Shown here piece by piece: positions 5,607 to 45,653 of a stretch of DNA of 64,000 bases. The stretch is from Fibrobacteria bacterium (GTDB lineage Bacteria > Fibrobacterota > Fibrobacteria > UBA11236). The translations under genes were made by a program, and so were the position numbers. The stretch lies in NCBI GenBank assembly GCA_041746255.1, contig JBGTHM010000032.1:32001-96000 (forward strand), read 5' to 3'. The notes below the pieces were generated by a model. It had not been told where the DNA came from and ran no database searches. It saw nothing but the letters and a program-made list of their open reading frames with translations. Position 1 is the first letter of the stretch. Each line of letters begins with the position of its first letter.

Positions 5607-5609
5607 GAA

Positions 5610-17848: not shown

Positions 17849-18060
17849 AACTGATATTATATCACTTATTGCAATGACTCAAACATTGCCGGAGCGTCCT
17901 GAAAAAGCGCAAATCCCGTTATTAGCCGACCGCCGGAGAGTTGCGACGTCTCAATGATGGGTCATGGAGGGGGTAACTTTCCCATTCACCCGTGTTTTAC
18001 GGGTAAATCAGGCCACATATCCCCTAAAAGTGCGAAATTTTGGCTAAAAATACAAAAAAT

Positions 18061-18080
18061 CTGTTCCCAAGTGGGAACAG
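18061..18080. promoter_or_regulatory. Palindromic putative operator, copy 1
   Basis: CTGTTCCC-AAGT-GGGAACAG perfect inverted repeat in the divergent intergenic region; near-identical copy at 24061. Confidence 0.6.
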
Positions 18081-18218
18081 AAGTTGGAAACCCCAACCAG
18101 TTAAAACCGTCGAACCCCCTAATATAGAGAGAGTTGAATTGCATTTTTTCGGAATCTTCTTGGGATTTGGGAAAGAATACAGATTGCGGACAGGTAACCT
18201 AAAATTGATAGGGGTAAT

Positions 18219-19151: not shown

Positions 19152-19486
19152 GAATCACAACCGATCCAGAGCATGGCTTAAGGAACTCTCCGGTTTTAAG
19201 TTGCCCAAAGTAATTGGGGCGCAGCGATAAGCCCTTCTTTGGAACCCAAGATTTCCCTCCCGAAAAATTCCGGGAACACCTTTGCAGTCCATGGTGAACA
19301 AGTTGGCGGAGCCGTGAGCTTCTGCTTGTTGTTTTCCGACCTAAGAACTGGATTTTCTCCGCTTCTGCGCATACACCCGATACCTTATGGGCATAGTACC
19401 GAATAGGGAGAAAAAGATCGATTCGTGGCCTTTGCTGAGTTTCATGCGGGAATGGCTGACGGTACACAATTAGCAATTGGATATTT

Positions 19487-20548
19487 ATGGAAAAGAAAAT
19501 TTCCACGCAGGCGTCATTTTGGTTTATGGGTTTAGCGATGCTATTCTCCCTTGCTTCACCATTAACCGCAGAAATCCTGTGGTATGGCGATCCCGAAAAA
19601 CCTCTCGAGGAAAGTTTCAGGCAGTTGAATACCGAGGCTGGAGAAGACGGTTCAGCCATCGTTGTAAACGACCCTGATTATGGAAAAGTTTGGAAAGTAA
19701 ATAAACCAAAAAGCTCCAAGCGCGCTGAATTAGCCAGAACCACTCCCAAAAGCGAAGTAGGGGGATACACGATACGAGAGGGAGATAGGGTTTTCGTTGG
19801 GTGGCGGGTGAAAGTGGAGGTCGCCGGAAGTAATAAACCCGATTGTGGATTTGCCCTTTTCCAGTTGAAATCCCTGGGAAATGCACAGCAAAACCATCCC
19901 GTATCCTTGGATTATAACGTCGCCAAGGGAGTGTTGGCCGTACAGGGCATAGACCAAGGTTCCGGCTCTGTCGACTCCAGAAAATTTGATTTTGCCACCC
20001 ACCCGATGAAGGAAGGCGCCTGGATGACGGTTGTCCTGGGGCTCAAATTTTCCAGAGAGCCTAAATCCAAAAAAATAGGGTTTGTGGAAGCATGGATAAA
20101 CGGGGTTAAACGGAATCTTATCCATCAAAATGAACAGCAGCAATCGTATTTCCGGACCCATGATGATGATTTAATGTATTTCAAATGGGGAGCCTACAGT
20201 GCCTGCATCAGGTCCCATGACATAAACGTATACATGGGTGATATGCGGGTCGGCACCACCTTGGCATCGGTGATGGATCCGCTCCAAGGGAAAACCAATT
20301 CCGCCTTAAAACATCCTCGAGGTGAAGCGAACCAAGCAAAATCATTTTCACGCGGATTCGCTCTGGAACCCGGTTTCTTTCCCTCCGACATGTCACTTAT
20401 GGATGTGCGTGGCAAGGTTATCTGGTCACGTAAAAACGTAACAGCCAACCCAATTATGGAACAGGAACACCGGGAAAATGGGATGTTCATTCTGAAAATA
20501 AAAACCGAATCGGAACTTCATAATTTCAAATGGATAAATTCAAAATGA
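19487..20548 (+). CDS. Secreted beta-jelly-roll polysaccharide lyase-like protein with C-terminal sorting-like domain
   Basis: Signal peptide; RAEL, FQLK, YFKWGAY motifs; MDVRGK...GMFILK tail. Confidence 0.7.
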   Translation: MEKKISTQASFWFMGLAMLFSLASPLTAEILWYGDPEKPLEESFRQLNTEAGEDGSAIVVNDPDYGKVWKVNKPKSSKRAELARTTPKSEVGGYTIREGDRVFVGWRVKVEVAGSNKPDCGFALFQLKSLGNAQQNHPVSLDYNVAKGVLAVQGIDQGSGSVDSRKFDFATHPMKEGAWMTVVLGLKFSREPKSKKIGFVEAWINGVKRNLIHQNEQQQSYFRTHDDDLMYFKWGAYSACIRSHDINVYMGDMRVGTTLASVMDPLQGKTNSALKHPRGEANQAKSFSRGFALEPGFFPSDMSLMDVRGKVIWSRKNVTANPIMEQEHRENGMFILKIKTESELHNFKWINSK

Positions 20549-20574
20549 AACCGATAATTTTGGAAAATACCGGA

Positions 20575-21678
20575 CTATTTAATCTCCAAGGGCAATGGTA
20601 AGAATTCGGTATTACCCCCCTTACTTTGCACCATGGCGAAAAATGCTCCTTTTTGAATATACTGCCTCGGAATAATCTGTGGACTCGTCACTTTATTAAA
20701 ACGCCACAATTCCCTCCCTTGTAAATTTTTGATGGAAATATCCAAGGGATATTTTTCTGCGGATAGGCTCAAACCAAGCGGAGTATGGTTGAGGACATAA
20801 GGTGAGGTTAATGCCCGGTTGCTCGGTCGGACACTATTAGGACTTTCCTTTTTCCCGTTTATGGTCGCACCGGTAACAAAAATTAGGGAGGTTTCCGCGG
20901 GTGTACTGCGGCCAAAATACATTCCCCAGCGAAAAGTAGATGAGCCATCGCGAGTGGAATAGGAGGACTTATAGGCTAATTCCCCATTGAAATACACTTC
21001 GGAATTCAATCCGTCATCGCGAATTTTGATATCAAAACTCTTGCCTCTGACATCCTTAGCGAGCGTTTTAGACGCCGACTTTAGATGATCCGCAATAAGT
21101 TCTCCAGAGGATTTCAATTTCAGCATGACGCTCCAGCAGCAGCCACCGTCTTTTACCTGAAAGATTCCGCAATAATGTGGACCCACGCATCCACGGACAT
21201 CCACGATGGTATAGGAACCTTCCCAAGTTTGCCATCCATCGCCTTTTTTAAAGCTGCTCCCATAAAAGGACTCAATTCGGGCAGCACCCTCTCGCTCGTT
21301 GCGGACATTGTATTCGCCCTTATGGATGCGGTAGACTTGTGTGTTTCCATCCTCTTGATACCAACGGGTCCATTTGGGAAATTCACTGCGAGGAATTTGG
21401 CTGCTTCCGGGGGAATGGATTTTGATATCCTGGGGTATTCCATGGCTTCCATAGGTCAGTTTGTCCATTAAATCATTATTAACATCAATGCGTGATCCCG
21501 TTATCCCATCGGTTGAATTATGCCCAATGGGGATTTGCTTATTTTTGATTATGGAGTCCCAAGTTGGGTCGGTTCCAATTTGCGTGTAATATTCCTGAGA
21601 GAAAACAGGCACATTAACAGCAATACAAAGTAAAAAAGCGGTTGTTGTCCGCTTGAGAATTTCAATATCGGCTCTCAT
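20575..21678 (-). CDS. Secreted PL7-like polysaccharide lyase with C-terminal sorting-like domain
   Basis: Signal peptide; RIES, FQVK, VYFNG, TFRWGMY; NLQGR...GAFFAMV tail. Confidence 0.6.
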   Translation of the reverse strand: MRADIEILKRTTTAFLLCIAVNVPVFSQEYYTQIGTDPTWDSIIKNKQIPIGHNSTDGITGSRIDVNNDLMDKLTYGSHGIPQDIKIHSPGSSQIPRSEFPKWTRWYQEDGNTQVYRIHKGEYNVRNEREGAARIESFYGSSFKKGDGWQTWEGSYTIVDVRGCVGPHYCGIFQVKDGGCCWSVMLKLKSSGELIADHLKSASKTLAKDVRGKSFDIKIRDDGLNSEVYFNGELAYKSSYSTRDGSSTFRWGMYFGRSTPAETSLIFVTGATINGKKESPNSVRPSNRALTSPYVLNHTPLGLSLSAEKYPLDISIKNLQGRELWRFNKVTSPQIIPRQYIQKGAFFAMVQSKGGNTEFLPLPLEIK

Positions 21679-21760
21679 TTTGCATCCTATTCCTTTAAGC
21701 GACGTCTGCAATATGACAGTACTGGCTAGTTAATCAGAAGAAATGGGACTTGGATTATAA

Positions 21761-21782
21761 CTCGTTTCTTTTTGGAAACGAG
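21761..21782. promoter_or_regulatory. Palindrome copy 2 (variant) next to a minus-strand TATAAT
   Basis: CTCGTTTC-TTTTTG-GAAACGAG with the same GTTYC-N6-GRAAC geometry; minus-strand TATAAT at 21759-21754. Confidence 0.45.
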
Positions 21783-21835
21783 CGACGGGTAATGGCAGGA
21801 AAATACGGAAGCGTTTGCCCGCACGGAACGGGAAG

Positions 21836-23056
21836 TCAGGGAGCTTTTTTAAGGTCCTCGACAGTAACGCCGAGTAAATGGACCTCGTCGATCAGGCAGG
21901 ATTCGGCATCCTGAATCTGAAAGGAGATCCTTTCGACCTGAGTGTTAACATCACTCCAGGTAAGGCCTCTGCTGGTGGAAGAACCGTTCGGCTCAGGTTG
22001 CTTAAGATCTTCGGGGAAAACGAAATAGCGCTCCCATTGCGATGACAATGTGACCTCCGTAAAGACGGCAGGTTCTGGAGTGGAAATTGCTTGGGTAGCT
22101 GCCCTGATAGCCAATTTTCCCGGCCCCTTGGCGTAAAAAGAAATTCCTTTCAATTTGGACAGATTGTAATATCCTTTTCCGAATGGCATTAGGTAGGGCG
22201 CTCCGGTAACCACTGAGAGACTGCGTCCGGTAGGCCCGCCGAAATCTTCGACTGTGATGGGCATTTCGGAGGTTAATTTGCCTGCATTAATATCGGAAGC
22301 ATCGAATAATTGGCCTTTCAGTAAATTTTGCGAATAATCATTTTCAAAGTCGAAAAGCATCAGCGAGTCTGATAACAGGTTGATGATTCTGTAAACACTA
22401 TCGGATTGAATTCCGAGCCGTATCCTAAGTTGTTCAAAGTGATGGGGCTTTAGAGCGGTATTACGGGGAATAATTTGATAGTCGCCATCAGGAAGGGATG
22501 AAAAGTAGAAGGAACCCAATGAATCCAATTCGGCAAAAAACGGCGTTCCCGGAATGGTCAGCGTATCCCCTGATATAGAAGTCAATATCTTGCCGGCCAT
22601 TTTATTGGCGGGCAGTAAGTCCCATTCCTTTCCATTCAGTCTCTCCAATTCCGAAAATTTCACGGTAGGACTGATCAATATTGAATTCGAGTCGGACTGG
22701 TAGAACTGGAAGAATACCGAAGAATCGCCGCTGGATTCGGCCTCGCGCAACCAATCAGCGAGAGCGGATTTGTTCCATTCCAGTTTGAATTTACCCTTGG
22801 CATCGGTGCTGGTGGAGGCAAGCATGGGGTAATTTTTTGCAGGCTGAGTCGCCTGCGTATCGGGTGCGTATACGCCTCGCATCATGTAAACCAAGCCTGT
22901 ATTGACGAATTCTTCCTCGAAATAAACAGTCCCAGCAATGGAATTGGGATTATCAGTTCCCTGGGCATGCTTTTCGGTCGATTTCCCCAAAATGCAGGCA
23001 TTGAAAAAAAACGCTGCCACTAGGAGCAAAGCCAGCCGAATCAGGTAAATACTCAC
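21836..23056 (-). CDS. Lipoprotein with C-terminal CBM11/CIA30-like domain
   Basis: GGAG RBS + GTG 23056; lipobox FFNA-C; GTDNPNSIAG; LFDFE...NLSKLKGISFYAKG...IDEV. Confidence 0.7.
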   Translation of the reverse strand: MSIYLIRLALLLVAAFFFNACILGKSTEKHAQGTDNPNSIAGTVYFEEEFVNTGLVYMMRGVYAPDTQATQPAKNYPMLASTSTDAKGKFKLEWNKSALADWLREAESSGDSSVFFQFYQSDSNSILISPTVKFSELERLNGKEWDLLPANKMAGKILTSISGDTLTIPGTPFFAELDSLGSFYFSSLPDGDYQIIPRNTALKPHHFEQLRIRLGIQSDSVYRIINLLSDSLMLFDFENDYSQNLLKGQLFDASDINAGKLTSEMPITVEDFGGPTGRSLSVVTGAPYLMPFGKGYYNLSKLKGISFYAKGPGKLAIRAATQAISTPEPAVFTEVTLSSQWERYFVFPEDLKQPEPNGSSTSRGLTWSDVNTQVERISFQIQDAESCLIDEVHLLGVTVEDLKKAP

Positions 23057-23090
23057 GATTTTTTCTCCAAATTCCGGACTTTTCCCGTCA

Positions 23091-23960
23091 TCAATTTTCT
23101 CTTGTGCTTTCAATCCAATGCTTACTAAGTGGGTAGAGTTGGACGCTAAAGGCGTAAACCGCTTCTCCCTCCTTGGATTCATTCGCCTCTGCCAGGAACT
23201 TTTGCCTTAATTCATCGATTTCCCAGCACATCTCGAGGTATTTTTTCCGGCTAACCGTAAAAGTACAATAACTCAAATGCCGCATTTCGACGGGCAGAGA
23301 ATCGCCCGCACTTATGGCTTTCAGTATCAATTCGGTCCGGGTACTTTTCAATACATGCGAGGGAAGCCCTTTGGAAGAGATGATCTCATCTGTCTGCGCA
23401 TATTTCCCTCCCGCTCTTTTTTTCAACAGGCCCAATTTTATAAGGGTATTAATACCCTCCTTCACTTGGGATTCGGACAACGGCGGATCAAAAAATTCTC
23501 CCATCCGTTGAAAGCTGCCGTACCACGGTGCGTAGACGGCCAGTTCACGCAAAACCTGTAGATACCATTTGTCAAAATAGGCGTATTGATCGGCTTGTAC
23601 GGCCGGTATATTATCCTTTGGGCGCAGGTTTTTTAAGTGCTGGAGAAATCCATTCTTCTCCACGTGGTCGTTGCTTTGATTGTAGAGGATAAGGGTATTG
23701 AAATATTCCTGCTCCTGCTTTCCGAATCCCAGTGATTTTCCGATTTTCAAGGCATTTTCAAGGGATAACTGGGACTGGCCCCGCAAAATTTTAAAGAGCA
23801 CGGTATGTGAATTGAAGTTCGATCTTTTCGCAAAATAACGCCATGAAAACTTGGGGTTCCGGGTCTTTTGATAATTGAAATAATCGTTTAAATAAATGAT
23901 AAAATTATCATATTCGAACAGGTCGAGCTTCGACGAATCTGCAACGGTATTTTGTTTCAT
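23091..23960 (-). CDS. TIGR02147/DUF4423 family protein (N-terminal HTH-like domain)
   Basis: LFEYDNF..YLND, FSWRYFAKR, YFDKWY..VLRE, LIKLGLL, VYAFSVQLYPLS. Confidence 0.85.
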   Translation of the reverse strand: MKQNTVADSSKLDLFEYDNFIIYLNDYFNYQKTRNPKFSWRYFAKRSNFNSHTVLFKILRGQSQLSLENALKIGKSLGFGKQEQEYFNTLILYNQSNDHVEKNGFLQHLKNLRPKDNIPAVQADQYAYFDKWYLQVLRELAVYAPWYGSFQRMGEFFDPPLSESQVKEGINTLIKLGLLKKRAGGKYAQTDEIISSKGLPSHVLKSTRTELILKAISAGDSLPVEMRHLSYCTFTVSRKKYLEMCWEIDELRQKFLAEANESKEGEAVYAFSVQLYPLSKHWIESTREN

Positions 23961-24060
23961 CTTTACAGGTATTTCGTATTCAGGAGAAACTCTTCCCCTG
24001 GCTAGGCACACACTGAAAAATAGGCATTCCCAAGGAATCCGCCGGAAATTCCCAGAGTTG

Positions 24061-34555: not shown

Positions 34556-35203
34556 ATGAATTTCAAAAAAACCTTTATGCCCGTAGCTTTAGGGATTTTT
34601 GTAGCGGGTTTCACGAGCCTGCCGGCGGCGGAATATGATATCGATCCCTCGCATAGCGAAATCGTGTTCAAGGTCAAGTACATGGGCCTCAGTACGGTAA
34701 CCGGACGCTTCGAAAAATTTTCGGGAAGCTTCACCTTGGATACTGCCAATGTACTGGCTACCAAGGGTAGTGCGGTAATCGATGCAAAATCAATCAATAC
34801 CAACGAGACGAAAAGAGACGATCACATACGTGCGGAAGACTTCTTCCATGTGGAAAAGCATCCCGAAATCAAATTCGTGGGCAAGCACGTGAAAGCGAAG
34901 GGCGATAAAGGCTACCAATTGGTGGGTGACCTAACCATGCGGGGAGTGACCAAGGAAATCGCCCTCGATGTGCAACCCGGTGGTCTGGGTATAGATCCTT
35001 GGGGAAATACCCGAGCCGCCTTCGAGGCTACCGGATCCATCAATCGGAAAGATTGGGGCCTGCAATGGAACAAGGTGTTGGAGGCCGGCGGTTTGCTTGT
35101 AGGCGATGACGTGACTCTCAATCTGTCGTTCCAAGGAATCCAGAAAGCGGCGGCCACGCCCGCCAAAGCTGAGAAAAAAGCCGCTCCCGCGAAAAAGAAA
35201 TAG
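34556..35203 (+). CDS. YceI family polyisoprenoid-binding protein
   Basis: AAGGAGG RBS, signal peptide, IDPSHS, RDDHIR..DFF, GDLTMRGVTK, DPWG. Confidence 0.92.
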   Translation: MNFKKTFMPVALGIFVAGFTSLPAAEYDIDPSHSEIVFKVKYMGLSTVTGRFEKFSGSFTLDTANVLATKGSAVIDAKSINTNETKRDDHIRAEDFFHVEKHPEIKFVGKHVKAKGDKGYQLVGDLTMRGVTKEIALDVQPGGLGIDPWGNTRAAFEATGSINRKDWGLQWNKVLEAGGLLVGDDVTLNLSFQGIQKAAATPAKAEKKAAPAKKK

Positions 35204-35260
35204 CGGAAGTAGATAGGCATGCTGATGGAACACCGCTTAGGCGGAATTCCATCGCTCGTC

Positions 35261-35905
35261 CTACATGGCCCACATTTCAAAAACCAGCGAAGCTAAAATT
35301 TTAATGTCGCGGGTTTGAATACCTCCCAAGCCGGGAACCTCGTCTTCCAGCAAGTCAATAAAACCGTGGGTATATCGCGCGTCAAGTCCTAGAAGAACCG
35401 TGGGCGCCACCCTGAAACTGAAACCCGCTCCGACATCCACTCCCATATCAAGAGGCGCGAGGGCGGATTCGAAGTCTTCGGTCACCTCATCAAAATCGGC
35501 TTCCACCGTTAAATTGTACGCGAAATTCGGTCCGGCGAAAACGAAACCGAAAGCATCGGGATTCCCGAATTTCAGCTTAAACAACACGGGCAATGACAGG
35601 TAGGTGAGACGAGGTCTACCCGTGATTTCCACCTCATCGGGCGTAATGGTGAAATCGGAACCCCGCGTCACGTACATGGGTTGAATCGCCAGGCTAATCG
35701 GTTTGCCGAAACCGAATTCAGCCGAAAGGCCGGCAGCCCATCCTAAATGGCCTTCCGCTTCTCCCTCGGTGATGTCGGCATTCGCAAAATTTATTCCACC
35801 GATAGGCCCCATGCCCCACTCGCCGAATCCCAGGCCGGCGATAATGGCGCAGAGCGTCAGGAAATTTCTTAGGCGATATGATATTGGTTTCGATTCTACA
35901 ATCAT
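35261..35905 (-). CDS. Outer-membrane beta-barrel (porin family) protein
   Basis: GGINFA, YLSLPVLFK, FAGP, DARYTHG amphipathic strands. Confidence 0.75.
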   Translation of the reverse strand: MIVESKPISYRLRNFLTLCAIIAGLGFGEWGMGPIGGINFANADITEGEAEGHLGWAAGLSAEFGFGKPISLAIQPMYVTRGSDFTITPDEVEITGRPRLTYLSLPVLFKLKFGNPDAFGFVFAGPNFAYNLTVEADFDEVTEDFESALAPLDMGVDVGAGFSFRVAPTVLLGLDARYTHGFIDLLEDEVPGLGGIQTRDIKILASLVFEMWAM

Positions 35906-36049
35906 ATGACTCCCTTGTGTTAATTGAAGCGCCCACCTTCCTGGATCGGAACAGAGGAGGTCAGACATACGCAAAAAAGCTTTTTCGGCGCCGAAGGAAA
36001 AGCTTTTCTAATTTCTTTCCCCTTGCAAACGGTGATTGGGGTAAGTTGG

Positions 36050-37246
36050 ATGGGTACGAAAATCAATGAAAAAGTGCTGCTGCTGATATTGGCGGCGGTA
36101 CAATTCACCCATATTCTCGATTTCATGATCGTCATGCCGCTAGGCCCCCAGTTCATCCGGGTTTTCGGCATCTCCACCGCCGAATTCGGATTTTTGATAT
36201 CGGTGTATACTTTCAGCGCCGGAATCAGCGGGCTATCGGTGGCCCTCTTCATCGATCGCTTCGATCGGAAGCGTGTGCTCCTTTTCAGTTATGCCGGCTT
36301 TACCGTGGGGACGCTTTTATGCGCGCTGGCACCCACCTACGCCTTTCTGGTGGCGGCACGATTGCTGGCCGGCGCATTCGGAGGAGTAACCAGTTCGATG
36401 ACGCTTGCGATCGTAGGCGACGTCATTCCGGTGGCGCGCCGTGGCTCCGCCATGGGCAAGATCATGGCGGCCTTTTCACTGGCTTCCATCGCCGGAATTC
36501 CTATCGGATTATTTCTGGCGAACCGCTGGGATTGGCACGCTCCTTTTTTCATGCTGGTCGGATTAGGCGTCTTTATCGGATTGGTGGGTTGGTATTTTTT
36601 GCCGTCCTTGCGCAGTCATCTCGTCCCTGGGGAGGAAAGGCGCAATGCTTTTCGGGAGATGCAAAGCCTGTTGTCGCACCCCAATCATCTCCGCGCCCTG
36701 TCTTTGACGGTACTGATGACCTTTTCCGGATTCATGGTAATCCCCTATATCAGCCCCTACCTCGTCGCGAATTCCGGCCTGACGGAAGCGCAATTACCCT
36801 TTATTTACCTGATTGGCGGTTTCTGTACCTTTTTCAGCATGCCGCTTTTCGGCAAATTGGGCGATCGGTTCGGATTATTACGGGTTTTCACCATCATGAG
36901 TCTTTTGACCATTGTACCCATCGCGGTATTAACCAATCTTCCGGTGGTGCCCTTGGGGGCGGCATTGGCAGTGACCACGCTATTCATGGTCATTTCTTCG
37001 GGCCGGATGGTTCCCGGGATGGCCATGGTGACTTCCAGTCCGGCTTCCCGCGTGCGCGGGAGTTTCATGAGCGTGAATTCGGCGGCGCAACAGTTTTCCA
37101 CTTCCTTGGCGGCTTTCACGGCGGGGCTGGTTTTGCATCAAACCGCTTCCGGGGAGTTTTCGGGATACCCTAGGGTCGGGTTATTGTCGATGCTCTTTCT
37201 GATCCTGAGCGTGGTGGTGGCCCGGGGCTTGCGCTTCCAGAGGTAG
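36050..37246 (+). CDS. MFS transporter
   Basis: About 12 TM helices; DRFDRK motif A, RLLAGAFGG. Confidence 0.92.
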   Translation: MGTKINEKVLLLILAAVQFTHILDFMIVMPLGPQFIRVFGISTAEFGFLISVYTFSAGISGLSVALFIDRFDRKRVLLFSYAGFTVGTLLCALAPTYAFLVAARLLAGAFGGVTSSMTLAIVGDVIPVARRGSAMGKIMAAFSLASIAGIPIGLFLANRWDWHAPFFMLVGLGVFIGLVGWYFLPSLRSHLVPGEERRNAFREMQSLLSHPNHLRALSLTVLMTFSGFMVIPYISPYLVANSGLTEAQLPFIYLIGGFCTFFSMPLFGKLGDRFGLLRVFTIMSLLTIVPIAVLTNLPVVPLGAALAVTTLFMVISSGRMVPGMAMVTSSPASRVRGSFMSVNSAAQQFSTSLAAFTAGLVLHQTASGEFSGYPRVGLLSMLFLILSVVVARGLRFQR

Positions 37247-37287
37247 CGGGCTAAGGAGCCGGGAAAAGTATGTAAATTACCTCCCTT

Positions 37288-37986
37288 ATGTCGGAAATCC
37301 GCCTCCGGGTCAGCGAAATCTACAAGTCCATCCAAGGTGAATCGACCCATGCGGGCCGGGTTTGCACCTTCATCCGCCTGGCGGGATGCAACTTGCGTTG
37401 CGCCTATTGCGATACCCCTTATGCCTTAAGTGCGGTATCGGGCGAGTGGTGGAACATCGAGGATATCCTAGCGCGTGTTCGCGAGTTGGGAACGGGACTG
37501 GTGGAACTGACCGGGGGCGAACCACTCCTGCAAAAGGCGACACCCGCCCTGGCGGCACGCTTGCTGGATGAGGGCTTCGAGGTGCTCATCGAGACCAGCG
37601 GGTCTTTCGATATCGATGTTTTGCCGAGCGGGGTGAAGCGCATAATGGATGTGAAGGGACCGTGCAGCGGTGAAATCGAATCGCTTCGCCAAGAAAACCT
37701 GGAAAAGTTGCAGGCCCGTGACGAGGTGAAATTCGTCCTCCACGATCGCGAAGAATACGAGTGGGCGCGCGGCTTTCTGGCTACTCACCAACTGGATTCG
37801 CGCTGTACCGTGCTTTTCTCGCCGGTATTCGCCAATAGCGTTCCGGTCGCCCCCTACCGCAAGCCGGTGGATACGGGGCTAGCGCCCAAGGAGTTGGCGG
37901 CCTGGATTCTGGAGGACAACCTTCCCGTACGCCTCCAGCTCCAGCAACACAAGTATATTTGGTCTCCGGAAGCGCGAGGCGTTTGA
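37288..37986 (+). CDS. queE: 7-carboxy-7-deazaguanine synthase (radical SAM)
   Basis: SIQGE, GCNLRCAYCDT, TGGEP, ETSG, QQHKYIW. Confidence 0.92.
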   Translation: MSEIRLRVSEIYKSIQGESTHAGRVCTFIRLAGCNLRCAYCDTPYALSAVSGEWWNIEDILARVRELGTGLVELTGGEPLLQKATPALAARLLDEGFEVLIETSGSFDIDVLPSGVKRIMDVKGPCSGEIESLRQENLEKLQARDEVKFVLHDREEYEWARGFLATHQLDSRCTVLFSPVFANSVPVAPYRKPVDTGLAPKELAAWILEDNLPVRLQLQQHKYIWSPEARGV

Positions 37987-38007
37987 GGGTTTTCGGCGGA
38001 GGCAATC

Positions 38008-38469
38008 ATGTATCGAGTCAGCAAATCATTCGAGGTTGAAAGCGGCCATTTCCTGTCCAAGCACCAGGAAAAATGCAAAAATCCGCATGGCCATACCCGG
38101 CGTATTGAAATCGTAGTGGCTTCCGAATCGCTCGACGCCAACGACATGGTATGCGATTTCAAGGTTTTCAAACTGGCCGTGGGGGAATTCCTCGATTCGC
38201 TGGACCATGCCATGCTTATCAGCACCGAATCGCCCCATCTGGAATATTTCCGTAAAGCTTTCGAAAGGGTAATTCCCGTGGAAGGGTCTGACCCCACCAC
38301 CGAAGTGATGGCGCGCCTCATCTATACGCGTGTGCGTGACGAAATCGCCCGGAAGAAATCCTATACCGCCCCCTCCGGAGCCCGCTATCGTTTCCCCGAG
38401 AGCCTACGCCTCGAAAGGGTCCGGGTGTGGGAAACCTCCACCACCTGGGCGGAATTCGAGGAGAAATGA
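38008..38469 (+). CDS. queD: 6-carboxytetrahydropterin synthase
   Basis: H...CKNPHGH, DF, LDH, PTTE, VWET. Confidence 0.88.
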   Translation: MYRVSKSFEVESGHFLSKHQEKCKNPHGHTRRIEIVVASESLDANDMVCDFKVFKLAVGEFLDSLDHAMLISTESPHLEYFRKAFERVIPVEGSDPTTEVMARLIYTRVRDEIARKKSYTAPSGARYRFPESLRLERVRVWETSTTWAEFEEK

Positions 38470-39461
38470 CCGTCGCTCCGCTGCTACGGAGATTCTCCGT
38501 CGCTCCCATGATGGATTGCACCGACCGCCATTGCCGGTTTTTCCACCGGTTGCTTTCGCGGCGCATGGTGTTGTACACCGAAATGGTGACGACCGGTGCG
38601 GTCATCCATGGAAAAGCCGATAGGTTGCTGGCCTTCCATGAGGACGAACACCCGGTGGCGGTGCAATTGGGCGGAAGCGACCCGCAAGCCCTGGCACAAA
38701 GCGCTCGACGTGCGCGTGAGTTCGGCTATGACGAGGTGAACCTCAACGTGGGTTGTCCCAGCGATCGGGTCCAGTCGGGTCGTTTCGGCGCCTGCCTGAT
38801 GGCCGAACCCGATTTGGTGGCGCAATGCGTGGAAGCCATGCGCGCCGCCGTGGACTTGCCTATTACGGTCAAGACCCGCATCGGCATCGACGACAAAGAC
38901 TCATACGAAGAGTTGCAGGGTTTCATTGCCAGGGTTGCGGCGGCGGGTTGCACGACTTTCATCCTGCATGCGCGCAAGGCATGGCTCAAGGGGCTCAGCC
39001 CCAAGCAGAACCGGGAAAAACCACCGCTGCGATACGACGTGGTAAGGCGCGTGAAAGCGGATTTTCCCGAATTGGAAATCATCATCAACGGCGGCATTAC
39101 CGATTTGGAACAAGCGCGCGAGCATTTGCTCGTATTGGATGGGGTGATGCTCGGTCGCGAGGCTTATTCCAATCCCTATATGCTTACCGAAGTTGATTCG
39201 TCGGTATATGGAGAAACAGGAACGATACCGTCACGAGCGGATATTGTCGCGAAATACCTTCCCTATGTTCGCGCGCGCGTCGAAGAGGGTTGTCCCCTGG
39301 GAATTCTGCTCAAGCCCGTGCTGGGTCTTTATCATAACCGCTATGGCGCCCGGAGCTGGCGTCGGCACCTCAGCGAGAACATGTTCCGGCCGGGAGCCCG
39401 TCCCGAACTGCTGCTGGAGGCTCTCGACTGGGTGGAATCGGCCGCGTCTTCATCAACATGA
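38466..39461 (+). CDS. dusA: tRNA dihydrouridine(20/20a) synthase
   Basis: ATGA overlap; SVAPM, QLGGS, NLNVGCPSDRVQSG, HARKAWL.GLSPKQNR. Confidence 0.95.
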   Translation: MTVAPLLRRFSVAPMMDCTDRHCRFFHRLLSRRMVLYTEMVTTGAVIHGKADRLLAFHEDEHPVAVQLGGSDPQALAQSARRAREFGYDEVNLNVGCPSDRVQSGRFGACLMAEPDLVAQCVEAMRAAVDLPITVKTRIGIDDKDSYEELQGFIARVAAAGCTTFILHARKAWLKGLSPKQNREKPPLRYDVVRRVKADFPELEIIINGGITDLEQAREHLLVLDGVMLGREAYSNPYMLTEVDSSVYGETGTIPSRADIVAKYLPYVRARVEEGCPLGILLKPVLGLYHNRYGARSWRRHLSENMFRPGARPELLLEALDWVESAASSST

Positions 39462-39480
39462 GGCTTCCGTGCCCTCCCAC

Positions 39481-40218
39481 TTATCGGTCGAGGCTGCGGA
39501 GTCCCATCATATAGCCTCCGGCAACATCCAGATTGATCCCCGTAATATAAGCTGCGCCGTCTCCTATCAGGAATTCCAGGGCGTCGCAGACATGGGAGCA
39601 TTCGCCCAGATGTCCGAGAGGAATGTAATCCTTCGGTCTATCGGGAAGCTCCACGCTGTTGGAAAGGACCCCGGGAGAAATCATATTAACGCGAATGTTA
39701 CGGGGTCCCAAGGCCTCGGCATGGGATTTGGTCAGTATGTAAAGACCGGTTTTGGAAACCAAGTAAGCCGTGTTGTAGGTGGAGGACGTGAGATTTTCCA
39801 GCCCGGCATAGCCGATGTTGATTATCGACCCGCCTTCGGAAGGGAAAAGCCGCAGGCTTTTCGTGATGAGATGGTAGGGTCCCACGAGATTGGTTTGCAG
39901 AGTCACATCGAAGTCGGCGGTGGGGTACTCGAGCAACTGCCCCGTTTTGTACAGGCCCACATTGTTTACCAACAGGTCGATTCGCCCCGAGGTGCGTTCA
40001 ATTTCATCCACCATAAAATCAATATCGGCTTGCCGGGCTATATCACCGCCGACTATGGCTGCGCTTCCGCCCGCGTCCTCGATTAGCCGCGCGACCTCTT
40101 TCGCTTCCTTTTGGGAAGCGCGGTAATGGACGTGCACGAAGTAACCGAGCCTCCCCAGGCGCAAGGCCATATCGCGGCCCAATCTTTTCGCCGCACCTGT
40201 TACCAGCGCCGCTTTCAT
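39481..40218 (-). CDS. SDR, pteridine reductase/FolM-like
   Basis: TGAAKRLG (TGxxxRxG typical of PTR1/FolM), VHYR, YLVSK; coupled to folB. Confidence 0.75.
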   Translation of the reverse strand: MKAALVTGAAKRLGRDMALRLGRLGYFVHVHYRASQKEAKEVARLIEDAGGSAAIVGGDIARQADIDFMVDEIERTSGRIDLLVNNVGLYKTGQLLEYPTADFDVTLQTNLVGPYHLITKSLRLFPSEGGSIINIGYAGLENLTSSTYNTAYLVSKTGLYILTKSHAEALGPRNIRVNMISPGVLSNSVELPDRPKDYIPLGHLGECSHVCDALEFLIGDGAAYITGINLDVAGGYMMGLRSLDR

Positions 40219-40571
40219 GTCCGGGCCCTTTCGGCAGTGGCGGAAGCATGGCGGGCTGCGGGAAGCGCCGAAGGCTTTTTCACCTTCATCCGGCAACGCG
40301 TGATTTGCGGCCATTTTTCCAAAAACAAATCGCAACCTTTTTCCGCCATGGTTTCAATCAACTTGAATTTCCGGGTTTGCGCCCAGTCCGCCAGGTAATC
40401 CGCCATGGCGGCATAATCGACCGTATGGGAAAGTTGATCGCTCCCGGCGGCGTCCTCGAAAGGAATTTCAATTTGCACGTCCACCGACAATTCCTGCAGC
40501 ATTTCGCGTTCATGGCTGTGGACTCCGACCACGCAACGGATTTTCAAATCTTCCAGCGCCAACCATCCCAT
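40215..40571 (-). CDS. folB: Dihydroneopterin aldolase
   Basis: VGVHSHER..Q, TVDY, LIETMAE, KKP. Confidence 0.9.
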   Translation of the reverse strand: MGWLALEDLKIRCVVGVHSHEREMLQELSVDVQIEIPFEDAAGSDQLSHTVDYAAMADYLADWAQTRKFKLIETMAEKGCDLFLEKWPQITRCRMKVKKPSALPAARHASATAERART

Positions 40572-41620
40572 TAAATCAACCCCAGGGTAAATGCATGTTC
40601 AATCAAAACCCGCGTGGGTTCGTTCAGCGGTAAAGATAATGCCTCGCGCGGCAAGGTCCAGAGATAATCCACCGCCTCGTAATTGAGAGTGACCGCAGTG
40701 CTGTCACCCGCCTCCAATTTCGCCAGATAATTGACAAGAATGAAATGCCGGGGCCGATGGAATTGGGGATGCTCAATGCAGTCCTGTACCATCACGAAAT
40801 CCACTTTTCCGGGATGGAGGCCGGTTTCTTCGCGTAACTCGCGGGAAAGGGCCTGTTCCAAGGTTTCGCCATAATCGACTTTGCCGCCGGGTATGCCATA
40901 GAGTCCCGACCATTTTTTCGTACGCACCAAAAGGGCTTCCCCGCGCGCATTGATTACAAGAGCTCCAACGGTGGCCAGGGGAAACAGATGTTCGGCCGCC
41001 AGCGAGTCGCGGGCTGCGAAACGCTTGATGTCGGCGGCCTGGCGGAAAACCATGTCCGGCTCCGCCATTTTAAGTAGGGCTGCGTCTGAATATCCGTAGA
41101 GGGCCGCTCCCGCCTGGATGCCGTTCCGTCGTGCGGCTTCCAGGTCGTGGGGGGTGTCGCCGATCAAAATGCATTCGGTGGGCGAGTCGGTGAAAGTCTC
41201 CAGTTCGCGGGCCAACACATGGATTTTATCCCGGGCGCCGCCACGAATTTTATGGAAGAGATTCTGAAGTCCCAAGCGATTCAGGGACTCCGAAATAAGG
41301 TTTTCTTCCAGGGAAGACAGGATGAAGAGGCGATGCTCTCCGTGAAGGCAATGCAGCAGGGAGTGCATGCCTGGGTGGAGGCGGACTTCGCTGGGGTAAT
41401 TCTTCCGGCAGATTTCGGCAAACAGGTTCTCTATAGTTTCGGGATCGTGGCCCGGGGCTTTTACGGAGTAAAACGCCGCTGCGGGAAGCGAGAATTCCCG
41501 TCTATATTCCTCATACGAAATCGATGAGCATCCCAATCCGGTGAGAGTCGCATCGGTGAGTCGCCAGGTCAATTCCTGATCGTCGGCCAGGGTCCCCGAC
41601 CAGTCGAAAATAATATCCAT
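40571..41620 (-). CDS. HAD hydrolase-NUDIX hydrolase fusion
   Basis: FDWSGT (motif I variant), LSS, IGDTPHD; NUDIX box GGKVDYGETLEQALSRELREETGL. Confidence 0.88.
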   Translation of the reverse strand: MDIIFDWSGTLADDQELTWRLTDATLTGLGCSSISYEEYRREFSLPAAAFYSVKAPGHDPETIENLFAEICRKNYPSEVRLHPGMHSLLHCLHGEHRLFILSSLEENLISESLNRLGLQNLFHKIRGGARDKIHVLARELETFTDSPTECILIGDTPHDLEAARRNGIQAGAALYGYSDAALLKMAEPDMVFRQAADIKRFAARDSLAAEHLFPLATVGALVINARGEALLVRTKKWSGLYGIPGGKVDYGETLEQALSRELREETGLHPGKVDFVMVQDCIEHPQFHRPRHFILVNYLAKLEAGDSTAVTLNYEAVDYLWTLPREALSLPLNEPTRVLIEHAFTLGLI

Positions 41621-41757
41621 GTTTTTGGGTAGAAACCTCTGGGAAAAGCTACAGCGCCGATACCCTCGGCAGAAGGGCCAGAATATAGCAACCTGCCCGG
41701 ACCCGGCCGAAGGCGGGAGTCGGTTTCGGAAAGGGTTTCTTGCTAGATTAACCTCAC

Positions 41758-42984
41758 ATGGGCAGGGTAGCATTTAGAGACGGGCATTGCGGCGGGATGG
41801 CCGCCATCCTTTTTTTCGTGGGTATCAGCCATGGCTTCCAAACTCCTCGCGAAGCCTCAGGCGTCAATCAAACCGCGCTCGAGGCATTCGGAGCCCGGAA
41901 TGCGGGAATGGGGACTGCCTTTGGAGGTTTCGGTGTCGATGCGAATGCTGTGGTAAACAGCCCTGGCTCCATTAACGACGTAATGGATCTCACCGTCGCT
42001 TTCGCCCATGCGGAAAGATTCGCCGAAGCCGGTTTCGATAATTTCGCAGCACTTATTCCCCTCAACGGCCGCTCCACTTTGGGCTTGGCCTTTTCGCGCT
42101 ACGGAGTGGGGGGAGTGCAGATTCGTGAAGACGAAGCGCGTCGCTTTGAAGACCCGCGTTTGCTTAATATAGCCGATTACCATGCCGCCCTGGCCTTTGC
42201 CCGGCGTTGGGGAGGCTTGGATGTCGGCGCCAACCTTCACCTGTTATACCGAAGCCTGGATCAAAGTGGATTGGGTATACGCGCCGATTTGATGTCTCAG
42301 TACACGCTCTTCAGGAATTTTCGCGCGGCGGCCTTATTGCGTGGCCTGGTACCCGCGGCGGCGCGCTGGGAATCGGGTCTGATTGAATATGAAAGTCCCG
42401 ATATTCATTTGTCTTTCGCATCGCGGTATCCTTCTCGATATTTCTATGGCGAAGCGCATATCGTCTACGAAACGCAAGGTATTTTTCAAAAAAATGCGAA
42501 ATCAGAATCCAGATTGAGGGGTGGCCGTGGTTGGGAAGCGCCGCTGCAATTCCTGGCTCTAGGAAGCCTGGGTGTGGAATACCTTTTCGATATGGGACTC
42601 AGTTTTCGTATGGGATTACGCGAGTTGGTTTCCCCCCAACCGAATTTCGGAATTGGATATCGGTATCGCCAACGTATCGGTATCGATTATGCCTTTTCCC
42701 CCCATCCCGATTTGCTTTCCTCTCATCGCGTCGGAATAGTAGTGACGCCCCGGTGGAAATCTTTTGATGGAGCCGGTTATCGGAATCGATTCAAGGACGA
42801 GAGTCCACGCCGGCCCCTTCCTCCCGAGGCCGGAGCCCAGCCGGATACGAACAAACCAGGGCCTGCATCGGAAGGCTGGGATGAACCGGGTGAGGAACTG
42901 AAAAGAAGTCCGGAAAATCCGGCGAAGCCTCAGGGTGCTCCGTCCATGGAAGTGCTGGAAGTTGAGGACGACTGGGATGAGTAG
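41758..42984 (+). CDS. PorV/PorQ-like outer-membrane barrel
   Basis: GARNAGMGTAF, NSPG, IDYAF..H..L..SHRV; start uncertain. Confidence 0.75.
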   Translation: MGRVAFRDGHCGGMAAILFFVGISHGFQTPREASGVNQTALEAFGARNAGMGTAFGGFGVDANAVVNSPGSINDVMDLTVAFAHAERFAEAGFDNFAALIPLNGRSTLGLAFSRYGVGGVQIREDEARRFEDPRLLNIADYHAALAFARRWGGLDVGANLHLLYRSLDQSGLGIRADLMSQYTLFRNFRAAALLRGLVPAAARWESGLIEYESPDIHLSFASRYPSRYFYGEAHIVYETQGIFQKNAKSESRLRGGRGWEAPLQFLALGSLGVEYLFDMGLSFRMGLRELVSPQPNFGIGYRYRQRIGIDYAFSPHPDLLSSHRVGIVVTPRWKSFDGAGYRNRFKDESPRRPLPPEAGAQPDTNKPGPASEGWDEPGEELKRSPENPAKPQGAPSMEVLEVEDDWDE

Positions 42985-43000
42985 CGATTTTTCGGGGAGT

Positions 43001-43573
43001 TTACCCTGAAAGCGCGTCCCGATAGCTTCGGAAAGAGGAAAATACCGAAACGACCCGGTCCAGGCCAAGCATATGTAAGCTCTCCCGTGTCGCCTCATCC
43101 TCGGTTACGATAAATGCCGGCTTTTCCATCCGATACGCCTCTTTCAGCGCTTTCACCATCAAATTGACCAGGGTGCTGTTCAAATAGTTGCAGCTCCTCA
43201 GAACGAATGCGAGAGAGGCGAATCCTTCGGATTCCGCCTTTTCGATGAGGTCTTTCAGCATTTGAAGGCTCCCCATGTCATAGGTTGAGCCGGTAAGGTG
43301 GATCAGCAGGTTTCCATTCCAAACTTGTTTGCGTAGCCAGGGTATGTTGCTATTCGCCGTTGCGGGTTCCTGACAGTCATCGCATAGGCCTTGTTGGACC
43401 CGGATTCCGGTCAGAAAGGACCCGCAATTCCGGCAAGAGTCCCAGCCTGGCGCTTCCCACTCCACCTCATCTTCCTTTCTAAGCCCGAGGGAGGGCTTCC
43501 CGTTTGGGGTAAACACTAGTTTAGCTTGTGAATGGGGTGAAAACAAGGTGGTTTCATCCGGTAGGGAGGTCAT
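43001..43573 (-). CDS. STAS (anti-sigma antagonist) protein with N-terminal CxxC-CxxC zinc ribbon
   Basis: CRNC...CDDC; YLNST, LGLDRV STAS signatures. Confidence 0.75.
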   Translation of the reverse strand: MTSLPDETTLFSPHSQAKLVFTPNGKPSLGLRKEDEVEWEAPGWDSCRNCGSFLTGIRVQQGLCDDCQEPATANSNIPWLRKQVWNGNLLIHLTGSTYDMGSLQMLKDLIEKAESEGFASLAFVLRSCNYLNSTLVNLMVKALKEAYRMEKPAFIVTEDEATRESLHMLGLDRVVSVFSSFRSYRDALSG

Positions 43574-43688
43574 CTAGCCGTGAAAAAATTGTTAGTTTTA
43601 TGGCAGCTCTTGGACTAAATTGTTTAACATCCCGTGGAATGGGATCGCTTTTTCCCAATAAACAATCATGGGCTTGAGGAGGTAGTTT

Positions 43689-45653
43689 ATCAAGTTCGAC
43701 ATCCGATCTGTAGGTATTTTCGATGTCGTTTCCGCCCGGCTTTCGGATGGAGAGGTTTTCGATTCCGCCAAGCTTAAAAATACGATTCGTTTTCTAATCG
43801 AAAACGATATGCGTAACATCGTTATCGATTTGGGAAATCTGGAGTACATCTATAGCGATACCATCAACGCCTTCATCGCAACCAATCGCCAAATGTTGGA
43901 GGTAAGCGGACGTATCGCCATCTTAAGCGAGCATCCCAAAGTTCAGGACATTCTTAAAAGAGCCGGTCTTGATAATATCATGCGGATTTATCGCTCCGAA
44001 GCGGAGATGGTGGCCGACTCCAAAGAGATTCTTCGTCAAACCTCCAGTTACCGTATCGAAGAGCTACAGAAAATCTCCAATCAGGATTTTCAGGCCCCGC
44101 CCCAGGAGCCGAAATCAGAATTCGACGATTTCCGGGACGAAATGGGGGAACAACTCGGATCCAAAATTGAAAACAACGAGTATCCCGATTATCAATACGG
44201 GGGACAACCTTCCAATCCCCCTCTCCAACCTCCCCCTCAACCCCCTCCGCAAGCCGGAAATTTCGAGTACCCCACGGTACAATTGCCAATAGGTCAGTAC
44301 GGAGATATGGCTCGCGGAAACCCGGGTGTTGATCCGGAAAGCGAGGATAATCGGCAACGGCGCTCTCCCAACGACCGTTTACGCAGCCCCAATGCCCGTA
44401 AGGAGCAAGGGCGTCGCGTGGGCGGTCGCAATGATATTCCTGAAACCCAACCGTTCCAATACCCGGATGAATCCCAATTCCAGCGGCCCCAGGCACCGGA
44501 ACCCGCAATGCCTGTCTATTCGGAGCCGGCCTACTCGACTCCGCAACAGCCACCCCAACAACCCTATCAAGGGCAGGGTTATGGCGGTGAACCTTATATG
44601 CCTACCGGTTCGCAGCCTGTTTTAATGGAAGAGAAATCCTTTCCATGGAAGGGGATGCTTTTCATCTTTTTCTTTTTGGTGGCTGGCGGCGGACTGATTT
44701 ATTATATCAACCAGCGCGTGGGGGAATTGCCCCAAACTCGATCGGTTGAAGAACCACCTGTGCCTCCGCCCACTCTGGAATCCGTTCCGGCACAGACGGC
44801 TGAACCCGAGAGAGTACCGGATCTATCGGCTCCTGCCGCAACTCCGCCGGTGGTTGAAGCTCCACGGGCAACTGCACCTGCACCTGCACCCCGGGAACGC
44901 GTCGAAAAAGCCCCCCCTAAGCCACGGGAGACTCCGCCGCAGCGAGAGGCGCGCGTTACTCCCGCTCCTGCTCCGACTCCGGCTCGTGCTCCGACGGCGA
45001 CTCCTCCTAGCTCGGGATCCTCCACCATTCGCATCACCAGCGATCCTTCGGGCGCTGAGGTTCTGGTGAATTTTTCCAAAAAGGGCGAAACTCCGCTGGA
45101 CGTGGAATTAATCAACAATTCCAATAAAATTATCGTTCGGAAGGCCGGTTTTGAGAAATTCGAAACCACTTTATCCAAGAGCACGACAGAAAGGGAATTG
45201 CGAGTGGAATTGGGTAAGGAATCCGGCGATCCGGAACCTGAATTCGTCCAACCCGTGCGGTCGGCCGACCCAACCCCGGCGCCGACTCCGCCTCCTCCTG
45301 TGGCGGTTCAAAGGCCGGCACCGGTGGCTCCAGCGCCTACAGCTACTCCACCACCACCTGCACCGGCACCGGAACCACCTGCGGTACGCAGGCCCGATCC
45401 TCCCCCCGCACCTCCGGCGGCAGCCCCCTTCACACCGGGTAGCGGACCTCCTGGGGAGATTTTTCTGTCGAGCAGTCCGGCACGGGCCGATATTTATGTC
45501 AATGGAAAAAATATCGGTAAAAAGACTCCCGCGAAGTTGGACCTTCCTTCCGGCAGCCATCAGATTAGGATGGTCAAGGATGGACAGTCTGCGTCGGTTG
45601 AGCATCGGGTTGATGTCGGAAAAAACCGGGCGCTGCATTTGAGTCTGCAGTAA
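43689..45653 (+). CDS. STAS - Pro/Gln linker - TM - Pro-rich - 2x PEGA protein (probable ATC start)
   Basis: IVIDLGNLEYIYS STAS; one TM; ITSDPSGAEV and LSSSPARADIYVNG PEGA repeats; GAGGAGG 6 nt before in-frame ATC at 43689 (first ATG at 43809). Confidence 0.8.
   Translation: MKFDIRSVGIFDVVSARLSDGEVFDSAKLKNTIRFLIENDMRNIVIDLGNLEYIYSDTINAFIATNRQMLEVSGRIAILSEHPKVQDILKRAGLDNIMRIYRSEAEMVADSKEILRQTSSYRIEELQKISNQDFQAPPQEPKSEFDDFRDEMGEQLGSKIENNEYPDYQYGGQPSNPPLQPPPQPPPQAGNFEYPTVQLPIGQYGDMARGNPGVDPESEDNRQRRSPNDRLRSPNARKEQGRRVGGRNDIPETQPFQYPDESQFQRPQAPEPAMPVYSEPAYSTPQQPPQQPYQGQGYGGEPYMPTGSQPVLMEEKSFPWKGMLFIFFFLVAGGGLIYYINQRVGELPQTRSVEEPPVPPPTLESVPAQTAEPERVPDLSAPAATPPVVEAPRATAPAPAPRERVEKAPPKPRETPPQREARVTPAPAPTPARAPTATPPSSGSSTIRITSDPSGAEVLVNFSKKGETPLDVELINNSNKIIVRKAGFEKFETTLSKSTTERELRVELGKESGDPEPEFVQPVRSADPTPAPTPPPPVAVQRPAPVAPAPTATPPPPAPAPEPPAVRRPDPPPAPPAAAPFTPGSGPPGEIFLSSSPARADIYVNGKNIGKKTPAKLDLPSGSHQIRMVKDGQSASVEHRVDVGKNRALHLSLQ

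Follow-up and report, generated by a model that had tools for sequence, protein, structure and literature searches.

The last dephosphorylation before FolB in the folate pathway, from dihydroneopterin monophosphate to dihydroneopterin, is ascribed in the folate-pathway papers of 2007 and 2014 to a non-specific phosphatase, and their passages on this step assign no gene to it (PMC1971073, PMC4161248). As candidates for the pyrophosphatase, these passages name the Nudix protein FolQ and a proposed HD-type FolQ2, and folQ is listed as missing in most bacteria (PMC1971073, PMC4161248). The FolQ gene lies in a folKEPQC cluster, and FolQ's nearest homologue in Arabidopsis is reported to act as a dihydroneopterin-triphosphate pyrophosphatase (PMC1971073). 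Another precedent is Parachlamydia sp. UWE25, a chlamydial relative of Verrucomicrobia, for which Table 2 of the same paper marks FolQ and FolB as fused proteins, that is, a pyrophosphatase and FolB in one polypeptide; the table entry gives no domain detail and mentions no HAD domain (PMC1971073). The subject of the present analysis is a 64,000-nucleotide stretch of DNA from a Fibrobacteria bacterium (contig JBGTHM010000032.1, positions 32,001 to 96,000), hereafter the window, in which a gene encoding a fused HAD-Nudix protein precedes folB. Judged from sequence, this fusion protein is a strong candidate for both dephosphorylation steps of folate synthesis. The open-access literature, to which our search was confined (subscription journals being outside its scope), yielded no HAD-Nudix enzyme, HAD-FolB enzyme or dedicated dihydroneopterin monophosphate phosphatase.

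Three co-directional open reading frames (ORFs) follow each other on the minus strand of the window. The HAD-Nudix gene (40571..41620; ATG at 41620, stop TAA at 40573-40571) encodes 349 amino acids (aa), folB (40215..40571; ATG at 40571-40569, stop TGA at 40217-40215) encodes a dihydroneopterin aldolase of 118 aa, and the third gene (39481..40218; ATG at 40218-40216, stop at 39481) encodes a FolM/PTR1-like short-chain reductase (SDR) of 245 aa. The first two are joined by a TAATG overlap at 40573-40569, in which the last A of TAA is the A of the folB ATG, and the second two by an ATGA overlap at 40218-40215, through which the three genes are translationally coupled. In the fusion protein, a HAD domain with a C1-cap, phosphoglycolate-phosphatase-like fold (41006..41620, minus strand; residues about 1-205) is followed by a Nudix domain (40574..40990, minus strand; residues about 211-349). 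The initial annotation had reported both stop-to-start overlaps, a canonical Nudix box and a HAD motif I of the form D-x-S in place of D-x-D, all of which are borne out by direct reading of the sequence: the Nudix box GGKVDYGETLEQALSRELREETGL fits GX5EX7REUXEEXGU, and HAD motif I reads F-D-W-S-G-T-L. Pfam searches with the window proteins returned HAD_2 (1.1e-19), NUDIX (1.1e-19), FolB (7.7e-27) and adh_short_C2 (3e-42). The HAD_2 match, with 71.7 bits against a cut-off of 23.8, was obtained at residues 54-222 of a longer ORF of 400 aa that opens at 41773; this longer form is unlikely to be used, and homologues start at M-[DN]-I-[IV]-F-D-W. The AlphaFold2 model of the fusion protein has a mean predicted local distance difference score (pLDDT) of 92.8 and a predicted TM-score (pTM) of 0.79.

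The assignment of folB is clear, with 94.5 bits to PF02152 (cut-off 31.8), 79.6 bits to TIGR00525 (cut-off 72.15) and full-length alignments with the solved dihydroneopterin aldolase structures 8su7, 5f3m, 2o90 and 3r2e. With both substrates, the order of the steps and the SDR substrate as we infer them, FolE2 would make 7,8-dihydroneopterin triphosphate, from which the Nudix domain would remove pyrophosphate in a FolQ/NudB-like step to give dihydroneopterin monophosphate; the HAD domain would then remove the last phosphate via an aspartyl-phosphate intermediate on D6. FolB would cleave the resulting dihydroneopterin to 6-hydroxymethyl-dihydropterin for folate, or might epimerise it to dihydromonapterin, and the FolM-like SDR would reduce a 7,8-dihydropterin to its tetrahydro form. 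We lean slightly towards this division of labour, in which Nudix takes the triphosphate to the monophosphate, HAD takes the last phosphate, FolB comes next and the SDR reduces a dihydropterin. In the scheme of the literature, the HAD domain would thus occupy the position given to the non-specific phosphatase; there the step has no gene assigned in the passages that describe it (PMC1971073, PMC4161248), whereas here adjacency and gene fusion connect a specific HAD subfamily to FolB.

A first line of evidence is the conservation of the gene pair. A search with the HAD-Nudix protein returned 766 proteins at E<=0.001, and HAD and NUDIX Pfam domains were present in all 120 listed. For the linkage survey, the best 80 of at least 581 genomic stretches encoding a relative in a species-representative collection were used, a count that may include HAD-FolB forms, as the HAD motif was one of the search patterns; genes were called with a simple ORF finder and FolB was detected with a trimmed FolB profile. 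FolB was found in 69 of these 80 loci (59 with a single-sequence tblastn search), or in 69 of the 75 that hold 5 kb of downstream DNA; another five, all without FolB, have less than 500 nucleotides (nt) there. In 68 loci, FolB lies directly downstream on the same strand, its domain starting 11-461 nt past the fusion match, and in the remaining FolB-bearing locus it is 2.2 kb away. The conservation of the linkage, proposed as a check by the initial annotation, is therefore seen in the large majority of loci. The 79 ORFs closest on the upstream side and the 76 that come next after FolB were highly heterogeneous: folK, folP and folE were absent from both sets, no other conserved neighbour was found in the 80 loci, and an SDR gene followed folB in only four. 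Because the outer neighbours vary in this way, it is the pair itself that is kept and not a block of synteny, and its recurrence in 68 of the 80 loci amid differing genes points to more than chance. In three Verrucomicrobiota genomes, the FolB adjacent to the fusion is again the sole FolB.

The same survey bears on the view that the protein serves general nucleotide house-cleaning, as a MutT/NudI-like pyrophosphatase joined to a nucleotidase, and that its position at folB is inherited synteny of no functional meaning. The source annotations, "phosphoglycolate phosphatase" and "ADP-ribose pyrophosphatase YjhB", and the nearest solved Nudix proteins, among which are MutT-type enzymes and NudI, would agree with such a role. 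However, the pair persists among neighbours that are otherwise all different, and each domain is separately linked to FolB, gene fusion included, so that we give this view very little credence.

Two further features of the surveyed loci concern the pair itself. Locus L073 contains one ORF of 492 aa (5031-6509) with HAD_2, NUDIX and FolB domains according to Pfam, which is either a triple fusion or the product of an assembly frameshift joining two genes. In addition, a gene for a Vut_1/YhhQ-type vitamin uptake transporter lies directly upstream of HAD-Nudix in L010 (554-1294, overlapping HAD-Nudix by 4 nt) and L051 (4273-4998), which are two of the four loci with a FolM-like SDR gene after folB; this transporter may represent a link to the uptake of pterin or 7-deazapurine precursors.

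The host genome provides the pathway context. In the host assembly (4.59 Mb, 130 contigs, scored 100% complete), the folB of the window is the only FolB match, and the operon must therefore serve folate synthesis, whatever else it may do. The initial annotation had suggested looking for folE, folK and folA elsewhere in the genome, and folE2 (GTP cyclohydrolase IB), folK (HPPK), folP and folA (dihydrofolate reductase) were indeed located outside the operon; a search of the genome for type-I GTP cyclohydrolase I found none. The only HPPK of the host is itself a fusion, a 449-aa ORF on contig C14 (L002, 736-2085, minus strand) in which Pfam places HPPK at residues 69-195 and a deoxynucleoside-kinase domain at residues 243-434; a panC-like ORF adjoins it.

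Clear links to FolB also emerge for each half of the fusion on its own. In a sample of 121 genomes from the phylum of the window, strong matches to the Nudix part were found in 11, all of which have FolB, adjacent in 10. HAD-Nudix is intact in the window and in genomes G102 and G042. The HAD cap is deleted in G108, and G078 and G044 retain a HAD remnant devoid of the nucleophile and of the motif IV acids, in which Pfam sees only NUDIX. Genomes G034, G036, G040 and G098 have a standalone Nudix protein of about 145 aa in the order Nudix-folB-SDR, with no HAD domain. Among the nine relatives, folB follows in all nine and the SDR gene follows folB in eight, G042 having no SDR match. In the family of the window, folB is thus stably partnered by the Nudix gene, and the HAD half can be dispensed with; since close relatives have lost it, the HAD step would be helpful but not essential, as would suit a step open to other phosphatases. 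In more distant relatives within the phylum, HAD and Nudix are encoded by two genes, which are adjacent in G003 and unlinked in G027 (L094, 3992-5081; L096, 3959-4603, and L095, 3926-4438). Motif I of these separate HAD forms reads D-F-N or D-W-N, FolB is not found nearby, G027 gave no FolB match anywhere, and their function may differ.

The Nudix domain itself scores 71.2 bits against PF00293 (cut-off 21.1), its fold matches NudI, MutT and Ndx1, and 40 columns are invariant among 17 fused and standalone members, indicating a tight subfamily. Among 374 short Nudix homologues at E<=1e-10, none is named for a pterin function. The nearest solved structures are a Burkholderia MutT/Nudix protein (4dyw), Arabidopsis Nudix hydrolase 1 (AtNUDX1; 6fl4, 5gp0, 6dby), which we take to be the Arabidopsis homologue of FolQ referred to above, and NudI. 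With FolQ (YlgG) of Lactococcus lactis, Arabidopsis NUDT1 and Escherichia coli NudB, the domain shares the Nudix fold, the canonical box and the clustering alongside pterin-branch genes; it differs from them by its fusion to HAD, by forming a highly conserved subfamily of its own and by the absence of NudB from its 48 PDB matches. By genomic context, the Nudix domain would be FolQ-like.

The HAD half, in turn, is fused to FolB elsewhere. Of 201 genomes sampled from the phylum of a Verrucomicrobiota relative, six encode the full HAD-Nudix fusion, and in 20 only the HAD half is strongly matched (E 1e-55 to 1e-65). Ten of these HAD-only loci were fetched, and eight encode single HAD-FolB ORFs, for which Pfam confirmed HAD_2 and FolB. 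A search with one HAD-FolB protein returned 2278 proteins at E<=1e-20, with PF13419 and PF02152 in all 120 listed; the few named ones among these 120 come from Akkermansiaceae or Akkermansia. In five of five HAD-FolB genomes checked, an ortholog of the Nudix domain was absent (best score 33.7 bits, against about 200 for orthologues), and each of the five has one FolB, the fused copy, together with HPPK and 4-5 other Nudix genes. In a FastTree phylogeny of HAD domains, 120 HAD-FolB and 116 HAD-Nudix sequences separate at one branch (support 0.997); both sets are the top matches of single queries, and the sampling is biased accordingly. Each half of the fusion is therefore linked to FolB independently of the other.

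The HAD domains of both architectures share a signature in which each residue is conserved to at least 90% in the 116 HAD-Nudix as well as in the 120 HAD-FolB domains, namely D6, W7, G9, T10, L11, D14, T22, F43, P46, F/Y50, Y51, K132, G154, D155, H158, D159, A163, G176 and Y177. In the window protein, the nucleophile motif is F-D6-W7-S8-G-T-L, motif III provides K132, motif IV is G-D155-x-x-H158-D159, and the conserved cap residues are F43, P46, F50 and Y51. The structures closest to the domain, 2ah5, 3sd7, 2nyv and 3mc1, are phosphoglycolate-phosphatase-like C1-cap enzymes. The best matches in fold and sequence together are C1-cap HADs of COG0546 (SP0104, 2ah5; the phosphoglycolate phosphatase of Aquifex, 2nyv/2yy6; AlnB, 4ex7; CbbY, 4uau), with TM-scores to the target of 0.70-0.84 and with motifs I (nucleophile), III and IV in common. 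In alignments to the HAD domain, 2ah5, 2yy6, 2nyv and 3sd7 have FDLDGTL as motif I, and thus D-L-D, whereas the subfamily of the window has D-W-S/A and an invariant histidine in motif IV.

These matches are relevant to an explanation in which the Nudix domain is a FolQ-type pyrophosphatase and the HAD domain has a small phosphorylated by-product, not a pterin, as its substrate. Either FolB would cleave the monophosphate directly and HAD would dephosphorylate the resulting phosphoglycolaldehyde, or HAD would hydrolyse the pyrophosphate released by the Nudix domain. The COG0546 likeness fits this explanation, HAD inorganic pyrophosphatases (the 3qu2 series and the PpaX model) were also matched, and pyrophosphate, or another substrate whose leaving group is good, should not need the acidic residue that this subfamily lacks in motif I (see below). 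Moreover, the architectures found, HAD-Nudix beside FolB, HAD-FolB and the triple fusion, are equally compatible with a HAD that works immediately after FolB and with one that works immediately before it. However, the domain stays below the cut-offs of the NCBIfam models for phosphoglycolate phosphatase (NF009695, 48.8 bits against 225) and PpaX (NF009804, 35.8 against 218), the FolB of the window aligns over its full length with canonical dihydroneopterin aldolases, and we know of no canonical dihydroneopterin aldolase that uses the monophosphate. The pyrophosphate version fits badly with the HAD-FolB genomes that have no Nudix ortholog, and the five invariant aromatic residues W7, F43, F/Y50, Y51 and Y177, located in the cap or close to it, suggest a ring-bearing ligand. 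We consider a by-product as the HAD substrate unlikely, and dihydroneopterin monophosphate is retained as the proposed one.

A number of observations weigh against the proposed route. For the hydrolysis of alkyl monoesters by HAD phosphatases, an aspartate two positions after the nucleophile (Asp+2) is normally expected as a requirement. This residue, the second aspartate of motif I, is the general acid-base of HAD phosphatases (PMC12715507), and it is missing in all 236 HAD domains of the two sets, in which the motif reads D-W-S/A-G-T. Given this family-wide loss, the chemistry of the domain on a monoester is uncertain. At position +2, the 116 HAD-Nudix proteins with an intact N-terminus have S (68 proteins) or A (48 proteins), a further four of 120 being truncated; the HAD-FolB proteins have S in 120 of 120, and the more distant split or unlinked HADs have N. 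The alternation of S and A shows that the residue at this position is not itself catalytic. Judged by conservation, H158, Y51 and Y177 are candidates for taking the place of Asp+2. Motif I reads D-W-A-G-T in phosphonoacetaldehyde hydrolase and D-K-T-G-T in P-type ATPases, a likeness that we draw at the level of the motif. Drimenol synthase AsDMS offers a precedent: its C1-cap HAD domain has DXG for DXD and takes drimenyl diphosphate to the alcohol by removing its phosphates step by step (PMC12232559). Like the proteins analyzed here, AsDMS has a C1-cap, no second aspartate and a fusion to the enzyme that makes its substrate; likened here by its description only, it differs in its isoprenoid substrate, its unrelated partner domain and the presence of G in place of S/A (PMC12232559). 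An active phosphatase thus remains plausible on account of this DXG precedent and of a remaining catalytic core under clear selection.

The missing general acid/base, together with the series of decay seen in close relatives (from a missing cap through a lost nucleophile to no domain at all), would also suit a HAD half that is weak or non-catalytic and that binds pterin phosphate, acts as a scaffold or regulates, tethering Nudix or FolB. However, D6, K132 and D155/D159 of the GDxxHD motif persist in 235-236 of 236 domains with sequence identities as low as about 38%, which is the pattern expected for an active site under selection, and catalytic residues also vanish where the domain decays. 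A non-catalytic role is for these reasons highly improbable. In another alternative, HAD alone would take dihydroneopterin triphosphate stepwise to dihydroneopterin, and the Nudix domain would be a redundant accelerator or have another substrate. The HAD-FolB genomes, with their single fused FolB, HPPK and no Nudix ortholog, would be accounted for in this manner, the drimenol synthase HAD removes both phosphates stepwise (PMC12232559), and the loss of Asp+2 should favour phosphoanhydride substrates. Yet in the family of the window Nudix is always kept and HAD is the part lost, Nudix is the more conserved half, as seen from its 40 invariant columns in 17 sequences, and the 4-5 other Nudix genes of each HAD-FolB genome could perform the first step. 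For the window protein, we regard a sole role of HAD in both steps as distinctly unlikely, and a division of labour between Nudix and HAD continues to be the reading that we prefer.

To be counted on the same side as the loss of Asp+2 is the fate of the module in relatives. The HAD domain is deleted or catalytically decayed in six of the nine relatives from the family or order of the window, and G108, the seventh, lacks the HAD cap; in all seven, the remainder of the operon is intact. In family f3, 47 of 47 sampled genomes have FolB and neither this Nudix nor a fused form of the protein, one of them having a weak HAD-only match; as these genomes manage without it, the module is not generally required. 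Six of the surveyed loci with 5 kb of downstream DNA show no FolB with the trimmed profile, and most of the 80 loci stem from metagenome-assembled genomes of Verrucomicrobiota and are not independent. Two of the ten fetched HAD-only loci encode a HAD that stands alone, with FolB absent within 3 kb, and given the single split in the tree, the HAD-FolB fusion is best taken as a single old event that a large clade has retained. As to the Nudix domain, the AtNUDX1 match is weak (about 5e-7, and 2.8e-9 with a profile), E. coli NudB is not among its 48 PDB matches at E<=0.001, and no NCBIfam equivalog scored above cut-off. The proposal of the initial annotation that one polypeptide performs both dephosphorylations and feeds FolB consequently holds up in part: it gains from the conserved linkage and from the separate ties of each half to FolB, and it is weakened by the loss of Asp+2 and by the loss of HAD in relatives.

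A broader version of the proposal is that HADs with the D-W-S/A-G-T motif form a dedicated pterin-phosphate phosphatase, the first for this orphan step, that works without Asp+2 and that, in Akkermansiaceae-type bacteria, where it is fused to FolB, converts the triphosphate to dihydroneopterin alone. We put this forward tentatively, and it is more doubtful than probable. If true, the HAD-alone route would solve the FolQ problem in a third way, with no relation to Nudix FolQ and the proposed HD-type FolQ2, and if the HAD half is active, it would be a natural example of a HAD phosphatase working in the absence of Asp+2. HAD-Nudix is a concrete candidate for both steps that could be tested at low cost; adjacency, fusion and differential loss connect it to FolB, and it is distributed across Verrucomicrobiota, Akkermansia-type gut bacteria among them, and in part of Fibrobacterota. 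Its confirmation would correct widespread annotations as "phosphoglycolate phosphatase / ADP-ribose pyrophosphatase" and would allow better calls of folate prototrophy when the metabolism of gut and environmental bacteria is modelled.

The product of the third gene was described in the initial annotation as a FolM-like reductase, a view with which its sequence motifs agree. The motif TGX3RXG, a strong hallmark of PTR1, is also present in FolM, ordinary SDRs having TGX3GXG, and folM-like genes occur in clusters with pterin-branch genes (PMC1971073). The N-terminus of the window SDR, T-G-A-A-K-R-L-G, fits TGX3RXG and its YLVSK fits YxxxK, and both motifs are kept in 12 of 12 SDR orthologues downstream of folB in the fetched loci. 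The protein thus resembles FolM of E. coli and PTR1 of Leishmania in these motifs and in its clustering with pterin-branch genes. It differs from them in its scores: the best NCBIfam match is the dihydropteridine/dihydrofolate reductase TmpR (NF012208, 183.4 bits, below the cut-off of 325), the pteridine reductase model NF006598 gives 127.1 bits (cut-off 288), and generic FabG-type SDRs score above PTR1, PTR2 and FolM in PDB searches. PTR1 and FolM were accordingly rejected as the top PDB neighbours. Since the host already has a dihydrofolate reductase, a role as pteridine reductase appears the likelier one for this SDR. The initial annotation had also considered a branch towards tetrahydromonapterin. 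The TGX3RXG motif is in keeping with such a branch; against it, the host genome has no aromatic amino-acid hydroxylase of the phenylalanine-hydroxylase type that would consume a tetrahydromonapterin-type cofactor, which leaves the FolM branch with no identified user. A homologue of pterin-4a-carbinolamine dehydratase is encoded on another contig.

As for regulation, a promoter scan gave no site upstream of 41620, its site counts not exceeding those of shuffled controls, and the only match in a scan of 35000-45000 for RNA elements and riboswitches was a sub-threshold small RNA (21.7 bits, the gathering score being 60). On the plus strand, queE (37288-37986), queD (38008-38469) and dusA (38427-39461) converge on the pterin operon, together spanning 37288-39461 of the window. 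The substrate of QueD is dihydroneopterin triphosphate, which is also that of the proposed Nudix step. As functional partners of the module these three genes were set aside as incidental, none being found near it in 25 further loci; queD-like matches occur in only 2 of the 80 related loci. Divergent from the operon is a plus-strand ORF of 408 aa (41758-42984) with no Pfam match, beyond which the stretch 43001-45653 contains two STAS-domain ORFs, one of them of 614 aa, proline-rich and with PEGA domains at its end. Further away, the stretch 18001-24000 has a G+C content of about 0.45-0.47, compared with about 0.53-0.57 across most of the window, and may be a foreign segment.

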